A stretch of DNA of 64,000 nucleotides from Candidatus Latescibacterota bacterium (GTDB taxonomy: Bacteria > Latescibacterota > UBA2968 > GCA-2709665). A model generated the notes under the pieces. The model was not told where the DNA came from, did not search any database, and saw only the letters and a list, made by a program, of their open reading frames with translations. Position numbers and translations under genes: made by a program. Numbering within the stretch: the stretch's first letter is position 1; every line of letters starts with the position of its first letter. Below are positions 1 to 7,650 of this stretch, piece by piece. The stretch is from the NCBI GenBank assembly GCA_965219995.1, contig CBDCOX010000002.1, positions 1,920,001 through 1,984,000 on the forward strand, read 5' to 3'.

Positions 1-436
1 CCAGTCCGAAATCCACCGCCCCCTCCAGAACCAGCCTTACGACCTCAGGAGACATCCGGTCTGTCAGGCGGATCTCGATTCCGGGGTACGCCTGGCGAAA
101 CGCCTTTACAGCGGGAGGCAGCACATAGGCGCAATTCGTATCGCTCGTGCCGATACTCAGCCGACCCGCGCGCAATTCTCCGAGGGCCGCCATATCCTGC
201 CGGATCTGCTCGGCCATCTCCAGAATCGCCTCGGCGCGCGCAAACAGAAGCCGCCCGGCCCCGGTCAACAGAATCTGCCTGCCACGGCGCTCGAACAGGG
301 CTTCGCCGAGTTCATCTTCGAGCGCTTTCACCTGAAGACTCACTGCAGGCTGGGTGAGAAACAGCTTCTCCGCCGCACGGGTAAAACTCTTCTCGCGCGC
401 CGTTTCCACAAAGCCCTTAAGCCGATCCAGATCCAT
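1..436 (-). CDS. LysR-family transcriptional regulator (3' end truncated by window edge)
   Basis: Not in the ORF track. Manual translation from ATG at 436 gives MDLDRLKGFVETAREKSFTRAAEKLFLTQPAVSLQVKALEDELGEALFERRGR, a classic LysR HTH, followed by the GRLSIG substrate-domain start. Confidence 0.93.
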   Translation of the reverse strand, partial: MDLDRLKGFVETAREKSFTRAAEKLFLTQPAVSLQVKALEDELGEALFERRGRQILLTGAGRLLFARAEAILEMAEQIRQDMAALGELRAGRLSIGTSDTNCAYVLPPAVKAFRQAYPGIEIRLTDRMSPEVVRLVLEGAVDFGL

Positions 437-509
437 TCGTCAGTACTCCGTCTCGCGATCGCGGCGCCTGGCAGTACCCTGGCGCAACTGCTTCGCGGAT
501 CGTGAAATG

Positions 510-590
510 GCCTTGTTATTCATAATAATATAATATAACAAAAATAAATTTAATAAATTTTTTTTATCGAATAGGGTACGTTATCATTTC
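510..590. promoter_or_regulatory. AT-rich divergent promoter region with LTTR box ATAA-N7-TTAT (553-567)
   Basis: Extremely AT-rich island between the divergent lysR and purA-like genes; contains a T-N11-A dyad at 554/566. Confidence 0.65.
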
Positions 591-662
591 ATCGTCCCGC
601 TCAACCCGGGGTTCTTATGGCGTTGCAGTATTCATGCACAACGTTCGATCTGGAGGTGTAAC

Positions 663-1682
663 GTGGGTGCAACGATTGTCGTAGATGCGCTCTGGGGCGA
701 TTCCGGTAAGGGAAAAGTCGCGGCCTATGTCGCACTCCAACAGAGAGCCGCCTTCTGTGTACGCGCCGGCACCGGCACGAATGCCGGCCACAGCATATAC
801 TTTGAAGACGGCTCCGAGATTCGGACACATCAATTGTGCTGCGGCTGGTTACATCCCGGTACGCAGATTCGAATTGGCAGCGGGGTGGCGGTGGACCCTG
901 AAATCCTGGTGCGTGAAATCCAACGATACAAACTTGCGGAACGTACCAGGGTGGATCTGAGATGTCCGGTGATCGCGCCTGAACATCGCGCCCGTGAGAA
1001 AGGAGACAGGCATCTCGCTGCCACTCTGGGCAGCGTCTGCAGCGGAAGCGGCGCCGCCAGAGCGGACTTTGTCCTGCGCAAGGCCAGCCAGGCCCGCGAC
1101 GTACGGAACCTTGAGAAATTCCTTACCGACGTGCCGCGGGAAATCAACACGGCCTGCAGGGACGGGCGGGCCGTCGTCATCGAATCCAGCCAGGGCACCC
1201 ACCTGTCGCTCGCGCTGACCGCGGACTACCCCTTCTGCACGTCCGACAACTGCACTGCCGTCGCCGCAGCGGACGACGCGGGCCTGAACTGGCAATACAT
1301 AAGGGACGTCATTCTCGTGGTCAAGGCCGTACCCAGCCGTGTGGGCGAGGGCCCGCTGCCGTTCGAAATGGGGATAGAAGAGCAGGACAGAAGGGGCATT
1401 GCCGAATACGGCGTCACGACCGGTCGACGTCGCAGAAAATCCCGCGGGATCTCCTGGGCGCACTTTGAAGAAGCGGTCATGTTGAACGGCCCGACTCAGA
1501 TCGCGCTCACCTTCTGCGACCATCTCGATCCACGAGTACGGGGAGCGCGTAAGCCGGAGGCCCTCACGGAACCGGTTCTGGAGCTGATTCGCGAACTGGA
1601 GACACGTGCACAGGTTCCTGTGACCATTGTGGAAACGGGAAAGTATTTCGGCGACATCGTCGACCTGACATCCAGGAGCTGA
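663..1682 (+). CDS. purA: Adenylosuccinate synthetase-like protein, short archaeal type, with divergent active-site motifs
   Basis: 339 aa with WGDSGKGK, GTNAGH, ESSQG, YPFCTS, SRVGEGP, EYGVTTGRRRR and TFCD; GTG start after GGAGG RBS. Confidence 0.85.
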   Translation: MGATIVVDALWGDSGKGKVAAYVALQQRAAFCVRAGTGTNAGHSIYFEDGSEIRTHQLCCGWLHPGTQIRIGSGVAVDPEILVREIQRYKLAERTRVDLRCPVIAPEHRAREKGDRHLAATLGSVCSGSGAARADFVLRKASQARDVRNLEKFLTDVPREINTACRDGRAVVIESSQGTHLSLALTADYPFCTSDNCTAVAAADDAGLNWQYIRDVILVVKAVPSRVGEGPLPFEMGIEEQDRRGIAEYGVTTGRRRRKSRGISWAHFEEAVMLNGPTQIALTFCDHLDPRVRGARKPEALTEPVLELIRELETRAQVPVTIVETGKYFGDIVDLTSRS

Positions 1683-1815: not shown

Positions 1816-2112
1816 CTAATTGTCGCTGTCCCGCCCAATACGGATGATTTCCAGCCAGGCCGACTCGTAATCTGCAAGCGCTCCCCGCCAGGCATTTCGA
1901 TTGCCCACCCCCTGCTGTAACGACAATGCCAGGCTGTCGACGATCCGCTCGGCATCGTCGACAATGTCCAGGCGCTTCGCATCCATCGCATGGAAGGCGA
2001 CGCCGTTGAGTTCGGTCTGTATGCGTTCAACTACCCGGCGAAAATCGTCACTCAGACATGCCAGCGTATTCCCGCCATTGAATCCGTTTTCCTGCACACC
2101 GTGGTTGGACAT
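1816..2112 (-). CDS. Hypothetical small helical protein
   Basis: 98 aa, GGAGG RBS upstream of ATG, natural amino-acid composition, no recognised motif. Confidence 0.55.
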   Translation of the reverse strand: MSNHGVQENGFNGGNTLACLSDDFRRVVERIQTELNGVAFHAMDAKRLDIVDDAERIVDSLALSLQQGVGNRNAWRGALADYESAWLEIIRIGRDSDN

Positions 2113-2567: not shown

Positions 2568-2784
2568 AATTTTTCGGTGTTCTTTTTTCACATTGAGGTT
2601 AAGTTCTCACATATATTGAGTGGCCGCCGGTACTTCCGGCAGGGGTGAAAACCACTCTGATCGGAGACGGGTACGGCGCCCGTGGGTCGAAGTGGCAGGC
2701 CGCTCGCCGCCGGCACGGCCGTTGTCCAAAAAAAGCTGGTTCCTCAATCGGTATCGAAACGTTTTTTTTTCAAGGAGATATACT

Positions 2785-4305
2785 ATGTTCAGAGGGAGTC
2801 CCCGTACAAGCTGCCTCCCGCTCGTCGCGGGTCTCGTCCTGGGCTGCGGCGCCGAACGTCTCACAACGCCGCAGAATGCTCAGACGAATGGAAACGTCCG
2901 GCGGCCGCTGGCCAAACTGGCGGCGAACCGTCAGGCACCGCTGGCCGTGGTCGTCGCCCGCCTTCGACAGGCCGGCACCCCTGTAAGCGGTGCCACCGTG
3001 GCGTTCGCCCGCTCGATTTCAGGAAGGGGCGCCAGCTACGAGTGGACCGGCACGACCGATGGACGCGGGCAGGCGCGAGTGGCGGTCGGAGAAACGCAGA
3101 CGGGCGGATACTATCGCGCGCAGGCACGCAGGAACGGAATCCCAATAGGGTCGTGGTCCAGTATCCCGATAAACCGCGGCGTCCAGCTCACCGTTGAACT
3201 ACCCGTCGGCGAAAAGGCACACGTCACGGGCTCAATCCGACTGACACCGGGCGGTCTCCCCGCAGAAATCCCGATTGGCGTTGTTGCGCCCCTGACGGTC
3301 CGTCAGACCCAATACGGTGCGGGCATTGACAGCGGCCTGAAACTCGCACTCGAAGAGATCAACGGCACAGCGAAGCTCGGGGGCGCAAATATCGTTTTCA
3401 AGAGAGAGGACTCCCGCGGCATGGCGCAGGGCGCCGTTGGCGCGTTCAACAAACTGATCTTTCACGATTACGTCTCCGTCATCCTCGGTCCCGCCCTCTC
3501 CACCGAAGCCAAAGCCGCATTTCCTGTCGCGCAGCAGAACCAGGTTGTCGCCTTCAGTACAACCTCGGCCGCGTCGGGCCTGAGCGCGATTGGCGACTAT
3601 ATCTTCCGTGCGAGTCTCAGTGTAGACGTGCTCATCCCTGGCGGGGTCGCCACGACAAGCGAGAAACTGGGATACCGCAGGGTCGCCCTTATGGTGGACT
3701 CCACCGACGTCTATTCCCGCAGCAGCGACGACGCGCTGCGCAGCGCCCTCACCGAAAACAACGTGGAGATCCTGACGAGCGAGACGTTTGCGACTGACGA
3801 TACTTCCTTTGTCGATCAACTTAGCCGTATCAGCGCCCTGAATCCCGATGCCGTTTTTGTTTCCGCCCTGTCCCGGCAACGCGTTCGGATTCAGGTCCAT
3901 GGCCGACGCCAGGGCATTCCTGCCAACATTCCCTTTATCGTGCCGGGGTTGACTCAGGAGGAAGTTCGGGATGCCGGCGATGCCGCGGAGGGTGCGATCG
4001 CCTTTACCGGCTGGACGGCCACGTCAACCACACCCGGGAATCACTCCTTCGTCGAGAATTACAGGTCGAGATTCGGCGCTGAACCGAATCGGTGGGCTGC
4101 GCAGTCATACGCCGCGCTATATGTTCTTTCAGAAGCAATTGCAATGGCCGGGTCCACGGATCCCGGCGCCATACGCGAAGCGATGGCCGGCATTACGGAC
4201 CTGGACACCGTTCTGGGTCAATTCTCGTTCGACCGCAACGGAGACGCGGTCTACGATCCCGTCGTGCTGGTCGTGAGAAACGGCGAGTTCGAGGATTTCG
4301 AGTGA
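2785..4305 (+). CDS. Lipoprotein: conserved N-terminal beta-domain plus LivJ/LivK-type (PBP1) substrate-binding domain
   Basis: Start revised to ATG 2785 (AAGGAG RBS); lipobox LVLGC; IPIGVVAPLT, EDS, ILGP, AAQSYAA, LGQFSFDRNGD. Confidence 0.88.
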   Translation: MFRGSPRTSCLPLVAGLVLGCGAERLTTPQNAQTNGNVRRPLAKLAANRQAPLAVVVARLRQAGTPVSGATVAFARSISGRGASYEWTGTTDGRGQARVAVGETQTGGYYRAQARRNGIPIGSWSSIPINRGVQLTVELPVGEKAHVTGSIRLTPGGLPAEIPIGVVAPLTVRQTQYGAGIDSGLKLALEEINGTAKLGGANIVFKREDSRGMAQGAVGAFNKLIFHDYVSVILGPALSTEAKAAFPVAQQNQVVAFSTTSAASGLSAIGDYIFRASLSVDVLIPGGVATTSEKLGYRRVALMVDSTDVYSRSSDDALRSALTENNVEILTSETFATDDTSFVDQLSRISALNPDAVFVSALSRQRVRIQVHGRRQGIPANIPFIVPGLTQEEVRDAGDAAEGAIAFTGWTATSTTPGNHSFVENYRSRFGAEPNRWAAQSYAALYVLSEAIAMAGSTDPGAIREAMAGITDLDTVLGQFSFDRNGDAVYDPVVLVVRNGEFEDFE

Positions 4306-5442: not shown

Positions 5443-6336
5443 TCAGAAATACTTACCTACACCGATTGAAACGGAAAATCCACTCAGGTCTCCGGGGTTG
5501 CCCAGCGCATCGGAAAAGCGAGCCAGTGTGTAGCGTCCGTCGGTTGTTACGGCCAGATTCCCGTGCTCTTCGAACCGAACGCTGCAGCCGGAGAGAACAT
5601 ACCCACCGAGGGTGAGTGAGATATCAGGAAATCCGCCTATCGGTCCCCCGCCTTGCGCCATCCCCACATTGATGCCTCTAAAGCCACCCGCCGACCCGGT
5701 CCCGAAGCCCAATTCGCCCGTGGCGTAGCCCCCGTAACCGGTGCGATGGTCGTATCGAAGATAGGGTCCTGCGCCGAATCCGACGTGGGGCACGATTCGC
5801 CTCTTCACCCCGAATTGCCGAAGCAAGCCAACAGGCATCGATATGAGGGTTACGCGCTGCACCCCGGGGCGCAGATGTTCGCCGAGCTTCCGGGAAGCCT
5901 GAAGCGGTCCGTACGTCATATATTCGTTTGCCGCAATCAGCCGCAGTACCGGTGAGAGCCGCCGGTCGTACCCCATCCGGAATCCGAAGCCGCCGGTGGC
6001 GCTGGAGAAATACAGGCTCAATCCGTTCATATCTCGCAGACTGTTCCGAGGCAGGAGAAGTTCTCCCTCATTCGCATTTTCCGTCCAACGGACGGGTCGA
6101 ACCAGGTCTGCCGGAACGCCCGACCTTCCGAACCCTGTCGTCACCGGCGGCATGAAATCCGGACCTCTCCACGGCATCTCGGCATCGGTCGGGACGCTGT
6201 GCCCGCCCGGCAGGACACAGGCCCCCATGCCGACCCCGGGCAGCGTCCGTTCCGGTTCCGGCTCCTCCGCCGCGAGGGAGGTCGCGGTCACCGTTGCCCC
6301 CAGACAGGCGAGAATCGTCAGTGTAAGTCTCATCAT
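5443..6336 (-). CDS. Secreted protein, probable small outer-membrane beta-barrel
   Basis: Signal peptide (..SLAAE), alternating amphipathic strands, C-terminal beta-signal SIGVGKYF. Confidence 0.6.
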   Translation of the reverse strand: MMRLTLTILACLGATVTATSLAAEEPEPERTLPGVGMGACVLPGGHSVPTDAEMPWRGPDFMPPVTTGFGRSGVPADLVRPVRWTENANEGELLLPRNSLRDMNGLSLYFSSATGGFGFRMGYDRRLSPVLRLIAANEYMTYGPLQASRKLGEHLRPGVQRVTLISMPVGLLRQFGVKRRIVPHVGFGAGPYLRYDHRTGYGGYATGELGFGTGSAGGFRGINVGMAQGGGPIGGFPDISLTLGGYVLSGCSVRFEEHGNLAVTTDGRYTLARFSDALGNPGDLSGFSVSIGVGKYF

Positions 6337-6404
6337 GCACCTCCGAGGAAATGACCGGCGCGAACAGGGCCGGACGTTGAACGGGACATCCTCGCCGAAC
6401 AGGC

Positions 6405-7571
6405 CTACGGCGTAATCACCAGGATCCGATCGTCGCCGGTGCGCGGCTGTCCGCGGCCGTCCCGGTTGCTGGTGGCCAGGTACACCTCGCCCTCGGGACC
6501 CACAAGTACATCCCTGAGGCGGCCGAACCTGCCGTTGAACCGTTCATCCCTCGCCATTGCGCGCCGGCCGTCGGCAGACAGAGAGATGATCCAGAGCGCC
6601 TGCCCCTTCAACGTGGTAAAGAGAAGGCTCCCCTTCCAGGCCGGTATCAGGTCCTCATAATAGACGTCCGCGCCGGCGGGTGCGATCGTCGGCGTCCATG
6701 CGGCGAGCGGTTCCACCACGTCGTTGGACGTGCAGAACGCGGTCTCGCCCGACAGGACGTCATTATCGCAAAATCCGCGAGCCCCCGGCCAGCCGTAGTT
6801 CCGTCCGGGCAGAATCAGGTTGACTTCGTCGTTGTCGAGGGGTCCGTGTTCCGTGCTGTAAAGCAGGCCGGTCGCAGGGTGAAACACAAGTCCCTGAGCA
6901 TTCCGGTGTCCGAAGGAATAGACCGCTGTACCGAACGGATTGTCCTGCGCAGGCCGACCTTCGAGGTCCAGCCGCAGGACCTTTCCCGCCAGTGAATTCA
7001 GATCCTGCGAAAGCGCGGGCAATTGCGCGTCGCCGGTCGTAAGGTATAGCAGATTGTCCGGGCCCACGGCGAGCCGGGATCCATCGTGGTTCGGCGCGCC
7101 GGGGATGCCATTCAGCAGGATTTCGGGTTGCCCCAGTGCCGATCCGTCAAAACTCATCCGCACCAGACGGTTCTCAATGCCGTCGCCCGTCCGGTAGGAA
7201 TAAACCGCATATAAATAGGGCTGGTTCTGAAAGTCCGGGTGAAACGCGATCCCCATCAACCCGCTTTCGCTCAGTTCGAAGGCGTCGATTCGACCCGCCT
7301 CCGTTACTGCGCCCGTCTCCGTATCCACGCGGGATATCGTGCCGCTGCGCTCGCTTACCCAGATATACCCATCAGGTCCCCAGGCCAGATCCCACGGCGT
7401 ATCCAGGCCGGTTGCCAGCGTCTGCACCGTAAAGCCGTCCACCCGGTTGTCGGCTGCCGACCCGACCCCGTTATCGGTCGGGGGATCCTCCGGTTGGGAG
7501 TCGTTCGCACCTCTTCCACAACCGGCAGCCGCAAATATCACGAGCAATGCCGCCGTGACGCGGTGTACCAC
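6405..7571 (-). CDS. PQQ-dependent soluble aldose sugar dehydrogenase (YliI/GSDH family), lipoprotein
   Basis: PWDLAWGPDG, GLMGIAFHPDF, HDGSRL, GHRNAQG, EHGP, NYGWP, GRLRDV; lipobox AAGC. Confidence 0.9.
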   Translation of the reverse strand: MVHRVTAALLVIFAAAGCGRGANDSQPEDPPTDNGVGSAADNRVDGFTVQTLATGLDTPWDLAWGPDGYIWVSERSGTISRVDTETGAVTEAGRIDAFELSESGLMGIAFHPDFQNQPYLYAVYSYRTGDGIENRLVRMSFDGSALGQPEILLNGIPGAPNHDGSRLAVGPDNLLYLTTGDAQLPALSQDLNSLAGKVLRLDLEGRPAQDNPFGTAVYSFGHRNAQGLVFHPATGLLYSTEHGPLDNDEVNLILPGRNYGWPGARGFCDNDVLSGETAFCTSNDVVEPLAAWTPTIAPAGADVYYEDLIPAWKGSLLFTTLKGQALWIISLSADGRRAMARDERFNGRFGRLRDVLVGPEGEVYLATSNRDGRGQPRTGDDRILVITP

Positions 7572-7650
7572 CGTTGCCGGCCTCCGTTCGTGAACAGCGC
7601 AAAACGACTCATGGCCGGATGCTTGTTGATTCCGCCACTCATTTACCGGC

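Follow-up and report, generated by a model that had tools for sequence, protein, structure and literature searches.

Adenylosuccinate synthetase (PurA) is usually viewed as a single housekeeping step, with PurZ as its one known functional offshoot, a picture that is changed by the results described here. They concern a short purA-like gene in a 64,000 nucleotide stretch of DNA (hereafter the window) from a Candidatus Latescibacterota bacterium (contig CBDCOX010000002.1 of assembly GCA_965219995.1, positions 1,920,001 to 1,984,000), which lies divergently to a gene for a LysR-family regulator. The closest described systems are canonical bacterial PurA, the short PurA of Pyrococcus horikoshii, the phage enzymes PurZ and PurZ0, and, with regard to gene layout, the classical divergent LysR regulator/target pairs such as CynR-cynTSX and IlvY-ilvC. 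The hallmark of PurZ is the replacement of the catalytic Asp by Ser, reported for all 147 phage sequences in one study (PMC12884076); according to two sources, the 2-amino group is accommodated by Ser and Phe at the places of Asp13 and Trp11 (numbering of Escherichia coli PurA; bioRxiv 10.1101/2025.10.22.683976; PMC12884076).

The explanation that we favor, and consider probable though by no means assured, is that the short gene encodes a LysR-controlled auxiliary adenylosuccinate synthetase from a so far undescribed clade of short-form enzymes. In this scenario, the enzyme would ligate L-aspartate to inosine 5'-monophosphate (IMP), most likely with GTP, and the resulting adenylosuccinate would pass to the single PurB of the genome. 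The divergent LysR would bind an ATAA-N7-TTAT box located over the -35 region and set transcription of the purA-like gene, presumably as an activator, so that the enzyme would be made only upon sensing of some small molecule by LysR. Directly supported are the fold, the conservation of the active site, paralogy, purifying selection, and the conservation of the LysR-box-gene unit.

The first-pass annotation of this DNA had described a stand-alone, 339-residue PurA-like gene divergent from a LysR gene across a LysR-type transcriptional regulator (LTTR) box, with no other pur gene nearby. This was confirmed throughout, and no pur gene was detected in the roughly 15 kb upstream and 5 kb downstream of it. 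The protein matches the Pfam family PF00709 (Adenylsucc_synt) in two separated stretches with 174.9 bits (E = 3e-51), well above the gathering cut-off of 27, and its closest solved structure is that of P. horikoshii PurA (2d7u/5k7x; HMMER, E = 2e-74, residues 3-334). An AlphaFold2 model based on a 25-sequence family alignment (predicted local distance difference test 91, predicted template modeling score 0.91) superimposes in Foldseek on the fully ligated structure 5k7x with a template modeling (TM) score of 0.95 and a root-mean-square deviation of 1.4 Å, as compared to TM scores of 0.86-0.90 for bacterial PurA structures and 0.83-0.85 for PurZ/PurZ0 (6fm1, 7odx, 7vf6), which share the short PurA-like architecture. 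As modeled, the protein has the PurA fold. With P. horikoshii PurA it shares not only the length of 339 residues and the same deletions relative to the roughly 430-residue bacterial form (about 90 residues in total), but also the catalytic, IMP, and aspartate residues and the guanine-reading Asp. However, structure-based identity amounts to only 38 %, and to 19-27 % for canonical long PurA structures; phage PurZ proteins are 25-31 % identical to the window protein. A search of the ESM Atlas returned only generic "adenylosuccinate synthetase" clusters.

The annotated GTG start is considered sound, since ATG-started homologs begin at the same residue (M-G/S/P-A-T-I-V-V-D-A). The gene is under purifying selection, with pairwise ratios of nonsynonymous to synonymous substitution rates (dN/dS) of 0.10-0.18 in 11 of 13 comparisons with relatives (dS was saturated in the other two). 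In related strains, the gene is partly covered at 90-99 % identity by contigs that stem from three RNA libraries (two studies); as assembled contigs devoid of transcript level, strand, or induction information, these are a weak sign of expression, silent on induction, and may reflect DNA carry-over. In one run (X18), the stretch 503-681 between the LysR and PurA-like contigs is uncovered, an observation that carries no evidential weight.

Conservation was assessed in a set of 121 sequences comprising the query and the best 120 database hits (54-95 % identical; hereafter the family), and the catalytic, IMP, aspartate, and guanine roles given below are those that we take the aligned residues to have in E. 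coli PurA. Trp11 (W11 in the query), the catalytic Asp13 (D13) and Lys16 (K16), the IMP phosphate ligands Asn38 (N40), Arg143 (R139), and Thr239 (T193), the base-contacting Gln224 (Q177), the aspartate ligand Arg303 (R255), and the guanine-reading Asp333 (D286) are present in all 121 sequences. The catalytic His41 (H43) is found in 117 of them, the aspartate ligand Arg305 (R257) in 120, and the third aspartate ligand, Thr301 (T253), is Thr or Ser throughout. From Asp13 to Asp333, these are the equivalents that the protein has in common with canonical bacterial PurA, to which it is further tied by the same superfamily and the same predicted reaction. PMC8342488 names a contact of Arg303 to both the ribose 2'-OH and aspartate, and Arg143 as the arginine provided by the dimer partner; both residues also appear in titles of PDB entries.

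All five motif changes relative to archaeal PurA that the first-pass annotation had listed are visible when the protein is aligned by HMMER with P. horikoshii PurA (2d7u/5k7x), that is, GDEGKG to GDSGKG, GTTGSG to GSVCSG, EGTQG to ESSQG, YPYVTS to YPFCTS, and TMLD to TFCD. Most of them are family-wide (e. g., GDSGKG in 121/121 and TFCD in 117/121), and the retention of the catalytic Asp and His, which had likewise been pointed out, is borne out by D13 and H43. Extended comparison with P. horikoshii PurA adds, as invariant differences, SDNCT for SKDVT, DDxGLNW for ADVGIGP, an RRK motif, TFCDH for TMLDK, and TGK for TGP; residue K327 (92/121) is a further marker of the family. The reported loss of the Thr129 equivalent holds true for the window protein, which has Val at this place, but does not define the family, because 73 of the 121 members have Thr and 48 have Val there. 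Overall, the query keeps four of the five IMP ligands (the equivalents of Asn38, Thr239, Arg143', and Gln224, but not Thr129) and three of the four phosphate ligands. Within the guanine-reading (T)KxD motif, D286 is invariant, while the place of Lys331 in canonical PurA is taken by F284 in 120 of 121 sequences (Met in P. horikoshii PurA). An aromatic residue at this place is also a feature of PurZ, and the Phe-Cys pair resembles that in the phiVC8-type NFCNY motif. As the guanine-reading Asp is kept in the family, GTP is the predicted cosubstrate, albeit with real uncertainty; the ATP-using PurZ of S-2L and phiVC8 carry Gln or Asn at this place. In contrast to PurZ, the window protein thus keeps D286 as well as Asp13, and it retains the Arg303 equivalent without the PurZ-type loop insertion. 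Judged from the alignments, the active site appears for the most part not to be re-aimed, and its differences would be clade markers outside the known contact set. The earlier proposal of a non-IMP nucleotide as substrate is therefore disfavored: the catalytic, aspartate, and base-contact residues (in their presumed roles) and the Arg303 equivalent are kept, and the Asp13-to-Ser exchange of PurZ is absent.

The short gene is a paralog, since a canonical long PurA (616.9 bits across the whole Pfam model) is encoded elsewhere in the genome (G000:C2:3846775-3848031), in line with the secondary role that had been suggested at the outset. Whereas the short gene has a putative LysR regulator of its own, the canonical copy adjoins a D-3-phosphoglycerate-dehydrogenase-like gene (identified by reading its translation). 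Long and short genes were found together in five of five other carriers checked, which belong to two families, and hence in 6/6 genomes including the window's own. The latter (98.6 % complete) furthermore contains a single purB above cut-off, about 98 kb away, as well as one IMPDH and an HGPRT. Neither an AMP deaminase (PF19326) nor a GMP reductase-type second IMPDH-family gene was found in it, and the idea of a purine nucleotide cycle was dropped for this reason, even though genomic absence is unproven. A purH match (G000:C2:2938457-2939623) spans only the AICAR transformylase half (positions 204-511; 281 bits as compared to a cut-off of 528), and IMP cyclohydrolase must therefore be separately encoded or of another type. 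Within Latescibacterota, the short gene is patchily distributed (45 of 151 genomes), being present in 12/14 genomes of the same genus and in 27/64 of a second family, as compared to 0/20 in a related genus. Public runs holding the stretch are labeled in their records as sponge, coral, and marine metagenomes.

Phylogenetic trees were computed with FastTree (163 rows) and IQ-TREE (LG+C20, quick search; 59 rows) from full-length rows that were hand-picked from the search returns, the first set having been thinned at 85 % identity. Both agree in placing the query in a clade with a support of 100 (SH-aLRT) and a stem length of 1.0, apart from the group of archaeal short PurA and long bacterial PurA and apart from the PurZ-like group. 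The PurZ-like rows form a clade of their own (95), which the query clade joins weakly (SH-aLRT 88, IQ-TREE) and of which it may be a sister lineage. The label "archaeal-type" given by the first-pass annotation therefore stands as a description of the short architecture, but membership in archaeal PurA is ruled out by both trees despite the same fold; likewise, the suggested comparison with archaeal PurA and PurZ did separate the protein from housekeeping PurA, yet left it outside both of these clades. Membership in PurZ/PurZ0 was also rejected, given the retention of Asp13 in the whole family, a score of 116.4 against a cut-off of 300 for NF038379, the separate clade, and the lack of Z-cluster neighbors. 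Taken as a whole, the interpretation of the first-pass annotation is partly supported.

The query clade comprises short PurA-like enzymes mainly from Latescibacterota and Chloroflexota with a few archaeal and phage-like members, and it falls into four parts, namely the core family, a TIR-associated part (GD[GA]GKG), a group with NAEHG, PTREG, and SSIGG motifs, and a strongly altered group around P0125. In representatives clustered at 50 % identity, full-length rows drop from 54 % (P0122) directly to about 45 %. The source names of the family include Latescibacteria, metagenome-assembled genomes (MAGs) labeled as Gemmatimonadota, Chloroflexota (Kouleothrix aurantiaca, Anaerolineales, and Thermomicrobiales), and one "archaeon" MAG; in one metagenome locus (L069), a gene for ribosomal protein S8e lies beside the purA-like gene. 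Two of three cluster look-ups for the family supplied hardly any taxon names. Unlike archaeal PurA, the short form of this clade has mostly bacterial hosts, and there it stands as a paralog beside another PurA. Our literature searches yielded neither a description of this clade nor any paper on short PurA paralogs in bacteria, on LysR control of purA, or on the ligand contacts of P. horikoshii PurA. A study in NAR from 2026 includes several hundred "other PurA homologs" that are left undiscussed, and its Supplementary Fig. S8 may show the clade.

Turning to the regulator, the complete LysR gene (L004, 14507-15436) encodes 309 residues with HTH_1 and LysR_substrate domains and is divergent from the purA-like gene. 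No NCBIfam LysR equivalog reaches its cut-off, the best being NF040786 with 198 versus 250; the selenium link hinted at by this model was rejected, as several unrelated LysR models score nearly alike. Of 83 loci with a called purA-like gene (the window's own genome included), 25 have a LysR gene directly next to it in divergent orientation, so that the survey of homolog neighborhoods proposed earlier did reveal a recurring pairing. The paired loci include some with only 60-68 % identity and differing other neighbors. In two further loci, an extra gene separates the pair. In L071 it is Schlafen-like, whereas in L014, from a relative of the genus, a DDE transposase in two open reading frame pieces (6200-7643) has been inserted.

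The box between the two genes is the only ATAA-N7-TTAT in the 64 kb, although 12 of 100 shuffles also produced one, and its real support is conservation rather than uniqueness in the window. Of 23 delimitable LysR/purA-like intergenic regions, 21 contain the exact box and two a version with a single mismatch, always lying between the two genes, across loci whose proteins are only 60-93 % identical. Two more regions were skipped by the start-finding pattern, and in L021 and L023, where the script gave an earlier second match, inspection of the sequences confirmed the homologous box. A TAnnnT hexamer (TATAAT, TATCAT, TATGGT, TATACT, and similar) follows 14 nt past the box in most of the 21 exact-box regions, so that the box would cover the -35 region of the putative purA-like promoter; a consensus promoter scan returned only one weak site (502-529) and missed this conserved hexamer. 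With the classical divergent LysR pairs, the locus shares the divergent layout, a T-N11-A palindrome in the common control region, and a single regulated target. It differs, however, in that its single recognizable box lies over the target -35 rather than near -65, and in that some relatives carry an APH-family kinase gene after LysR. This gene is directly downstream and in the same direction in L007, L014, L016, L020, L029, L053, and L087 and shows weak likeness to homoserine kinase II (80-88 bits, far under the cut-off). Only N- and C-terminal scraps of it remain in the window's genome (G000:C2:1919485-1919571, just upstream of the window) and in most relatives of the genus, and it was therefore deleted internally in this lineage. 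Activation is suggested by the usual behavior of LysR regulators, and ligand control of the short gene is plausible, with "inducible" being a reading of the gene layout. In the Chloroflexota-type branch, a TrmB-family regulator is found upstream of the purA-like gene (four loci), and a single regulated gene thus represents a recurring layout.

Relatives elsewhere in the clade are found in quite different settings. In L066 (2319-5976), the most telling of these loci, a core-family PurA-like gene is part of an overlapping operon with genes for a GMP-reductase-like protein (332 residues), a PurB-like protein, and ThyX, located downstream of a DNA methylase fragment; the PurB-like protein is truncated (TIGR00928, 247 bits versus a cut-off of 326). 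Such a layout would be expected for an enzyme that makes a succinyl-purine nucleotide from IMP, the product of GMP reductase, and so fits the favored explanation; the operon probably belongs to a phage or mobile element that converts G to A-type nucleotides. Other branches adjoin genes for phosphoribosyltransferases, a nucleoside deoxyribosyltransferase, a LOG-family protein, DNA polymerase A, and HNH nucleases, or for TIR, Prok-E2, ThiF-JAB, DUF6527, and HD proteins. The TIR-adjoining subclade (L078, L081-L084, L090) is characterized by the motifs GD[GA]GKG, DST.SG, PTCVG, and T[FY]CDQ. In L081-L084 the purA-like gene follows genes for Prok-E2_E, ThiF+JAB, and DUF6527, L078 encodes a pYEATS-TIR protein, and in L090 the neighbor is an HD protein that weakly resembles dGTPase; this subclade may represent a conflict system that uses a PurA-like enzyme. 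Assignment to a known anti-phage defense family was tried and rejected, as neither the window protein nor a TIR-associated relative nor the 98-residue neighbor had a PADLOC match. A large sister subclade (L072-L076, L079-L080, L085-L086, L088-L089, L093, L096-L097; P0127, P0130) carries NAEHG, PTREG, and SSIGG motifs in place of the Arg303/Thr301 aspartate loop. Its members frequently adjoin GMP-reductase-like, phosphoribosyltransferase, DNA polymerase A, or HNH genes in arrays of small genes on the same strand, and one of its clusters is named Patescibacteria/Parcubacteria. Finally, the Chloroflexota-type members P0108, P0119, P0122, L050, L056, and L058 have Ala in place of the catalytic His41 equivalent (TNAGAS; 4/121 in the family), often with the TrmB-family regulator upstream.

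Several observations weigh against an auxiliary adenylosuccinate synthetase. A complete PurA is already in the cell, and the need for a second one is unexplained. The top NCBIfam model, the short archaeal-type PurA PRK04293/NF003295, scores 330.6 bits and thus below its curated cut-off of 368, and the long-PurA models stay under theirs as well (TIGR00184, 216.4 versus 395.6; NF002223, 163.7 versus 402). Moreover, S14 (Glu in PurA), S176, N196-C197, D204-D205, W210, K259, F284-C285, and H287 are invariant in the family, their roles are unexplained, and several of them sit in segments lining the nucleotide pockets of PurA. F284 and H287 stand where phiVC8 PurZ has F295 and Y298, which stack on adenine (bioRxiv 10.1101/2025.10.22.683976), a resemblance that renders the use of GTP uncertain. 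With the catalytic His absent from 4 of 121 members, some of the family may no longer follow PurA chemistry. A box located over the -35 region would also be consistent with repression, and our literature searches found no enzyme assay for any member of the clade.

Some of this evidence can be read as a change of substrate, in which the same fold and chemistry would serve a non-IMP 6-oxopurine acceptor (GMP, XMP, a deoxy form, or a 7-deaza analogue) and lead to a modified adenine-type nucleotide. The invariant clade-specific residues beside the pocket motifs, the scores below the PurA equivalog cut-offs, and a clade that stands apart from housekeeping PurA as a weakly supported sister of the PurZ-like group would all fit, as would the phage- and defense-like contexts of the sister subclades (GMP-reductase-like, phosphoribosyltransferase, DNA polymerase A, HNH, and TIR genes) and the L066 trio, which resembles the ToyE/ToyG/ToyF logic of 7-deazapurine nucleoside antibiotics. 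We nevertheless regard such an acceptor as unlikely, because D13 and W11 are PurA-like where PurZ has Ser and Phe, the Thr129 change is not family-wide, and the window offers no nearby partner genes for an unusual nucleotide in a genome with one PurB only. In addition, the kept Arg303 equivalent without the PurZ-type loop insertion argues for a ribonucleotide (PMC8342488). A more far-reaching version, which we hold to be quite doubtful, would see in the clade a third, functionally distinct lineage of short PurA-like enzymes and a sister of PurZ, in which S14, SDNCT, DDxGLNW, TFCDH, and TGK redirect the enzyme to a non-IMP purine nucleotide or to ATP as donor. On this view, the LysR pair would supply a non-canonical N6-succinyl or amino-purine nucleotide when needed, and the same activity would be exerted in phage-host conflict by the relatives in phage-like GuaC-PurA-PurB-ThyX operons and beside TIR/E1-E2 genes.

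If the chemistry is that of ordinary PurA, the gene might conceivably serve as a back-up isozyme whose altered nucleotide pockets render it insensitive to shutdown of the main PurA and which is induced when the latter is blocked, for example, by (p)ppGpp, by AMP or GDP feedback, or by natural inhibitors such as hadacidin, hydantocidin phosphate, or alanosine. The co-occurrence with canonical PurA in all six genomes checked, the accessory distribution (45/151), the dedicated regulator, and a habitat rich in secondary metabolites (sponge, coral, and marine, according to run-record labels) are compatible with this role, and the clade-specific changes concentrate near the GTP-base motif (TFCDH, TGK) and the P-loop. 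However, this proposal is purely inferential, no inhibitor biosynthesis or efflux genes are linked to the locus, and resistance to hadacidin would lack an obvious basis, since the aspartate/hadacidin ligands are unchanged in the family. We therefore consider it quite unlikely in this specific form, which is a sub-case of an auxiliary adenylosuccinate synthetase and compatible with it. The patchy distribution, the deleted neighboring kinase gene, and the loss of the catalytic His in some relatives might suggest that the gene was acquired horizontally and is now a decaying or non-catalytic relic, but this reading is largely refuted by the data on selection and conservation and appears very improbable: the frame is intact, the active site is complete, dN/dS is low (0.10-0.18), promoter, box, and ribosome-binding site are conserved, and the gene is covered by RNA-library contigs.

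The large and strongly supported clade of short PurA-like proteins thus spans bacteria, archaea, and phage-like elements and is not captured by any curated equivalog model. One of its branches, in Latescibacterota and relatives, forms a self-contained LysR-box-gene module alongside a normal PurA (6/6 genomes checked), while sister branches sit in nucleotide-conversion operons and beside defense-type genes. If the window protein is simply a second PurA, it would represent a clear case of a conditional duplication of the committed AMP step in host-associated bacteria, and the LysR effector would be a handle on what limits adenylate synthesis in that habitat. If its substrate differs, it would open a new route to modified purine nucleotides. 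In both cases, pipelines that label every member of the clade "adenylosuccinate synthetase" assign a putative name.

Table 1. Features of the purA-like locus and its downstream flank, with positions counted from the first nucleotide of the window.
Feature	Position	Strand	Remarks
LysR-family regulator, N-terminal 145 codons	2..436	-	cut by the window start
Divergent control region	437..662		226 bp, AT-rich; center conserved among relatives, flanks variable
LTTR box ATAAATTTTTTTTAT	553..567		ATAA-N7-TTAT interrupted palindrome containing T-N11-A
-10-like hexamer TATCAT	582..587	+	14 nt after the box
Shine-Dalgarno sequence GGAGGTG	649..655	+	7 nt before the GTG start; GGAGG kept at the same place in relatives
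Short purA-like gene	663..1682 (including stop codon)	+	339 residues, GTG start, core "GDSGKG" family
98-residue open reading frame	1816-2112	-	convergent with the purA-like gene; GGGAGG ribosome-binding site
Periplasmic binding protein (Peripla_BP_6)	2620-4305	+	N-terminal extension of about 200 residues with a weak Big_1-like stretch

The remaining neighbors of the locus are chromosomal genes, and the Z-cluster genes datZ, mazZ/dutZ, and dpoZ are not among them. Upstream lie genes for a TPR/GWxTD protein, a glycerate-2-kinase-like protein, and an EamA transporter, and downstream the conserved 98-residue open reading frame, the periplasmic binding protein, and a xylose-isomerase-like TIM barrel. 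As the whole block is syntenic, the neighborhood is uninformative on function inside this Latescibacterota genus. The 98-residue open reading frame has no Pfam, NCBIfam, or PADLOC family match; it is kept at 61-91 % identity in relatives of the genus and at 44 % in L020/L029, and a related strain seen in RNA-library contigs is without it (joint 1816>2340). Between this open reading frame and the periplasmic binding protein gene, a repeat of about 265 bp (2338-2603) is matched 57 times in the genome by blastn; at least 17 of these matches are nearly full-length (72-95 % identity). With very high contig depth and loose ends at both borders in DNA and RNA-library runs, it looks like a mobile intergenic element, either similar to a miniature inverted-repeat transposable element (MITE) or of another kind.

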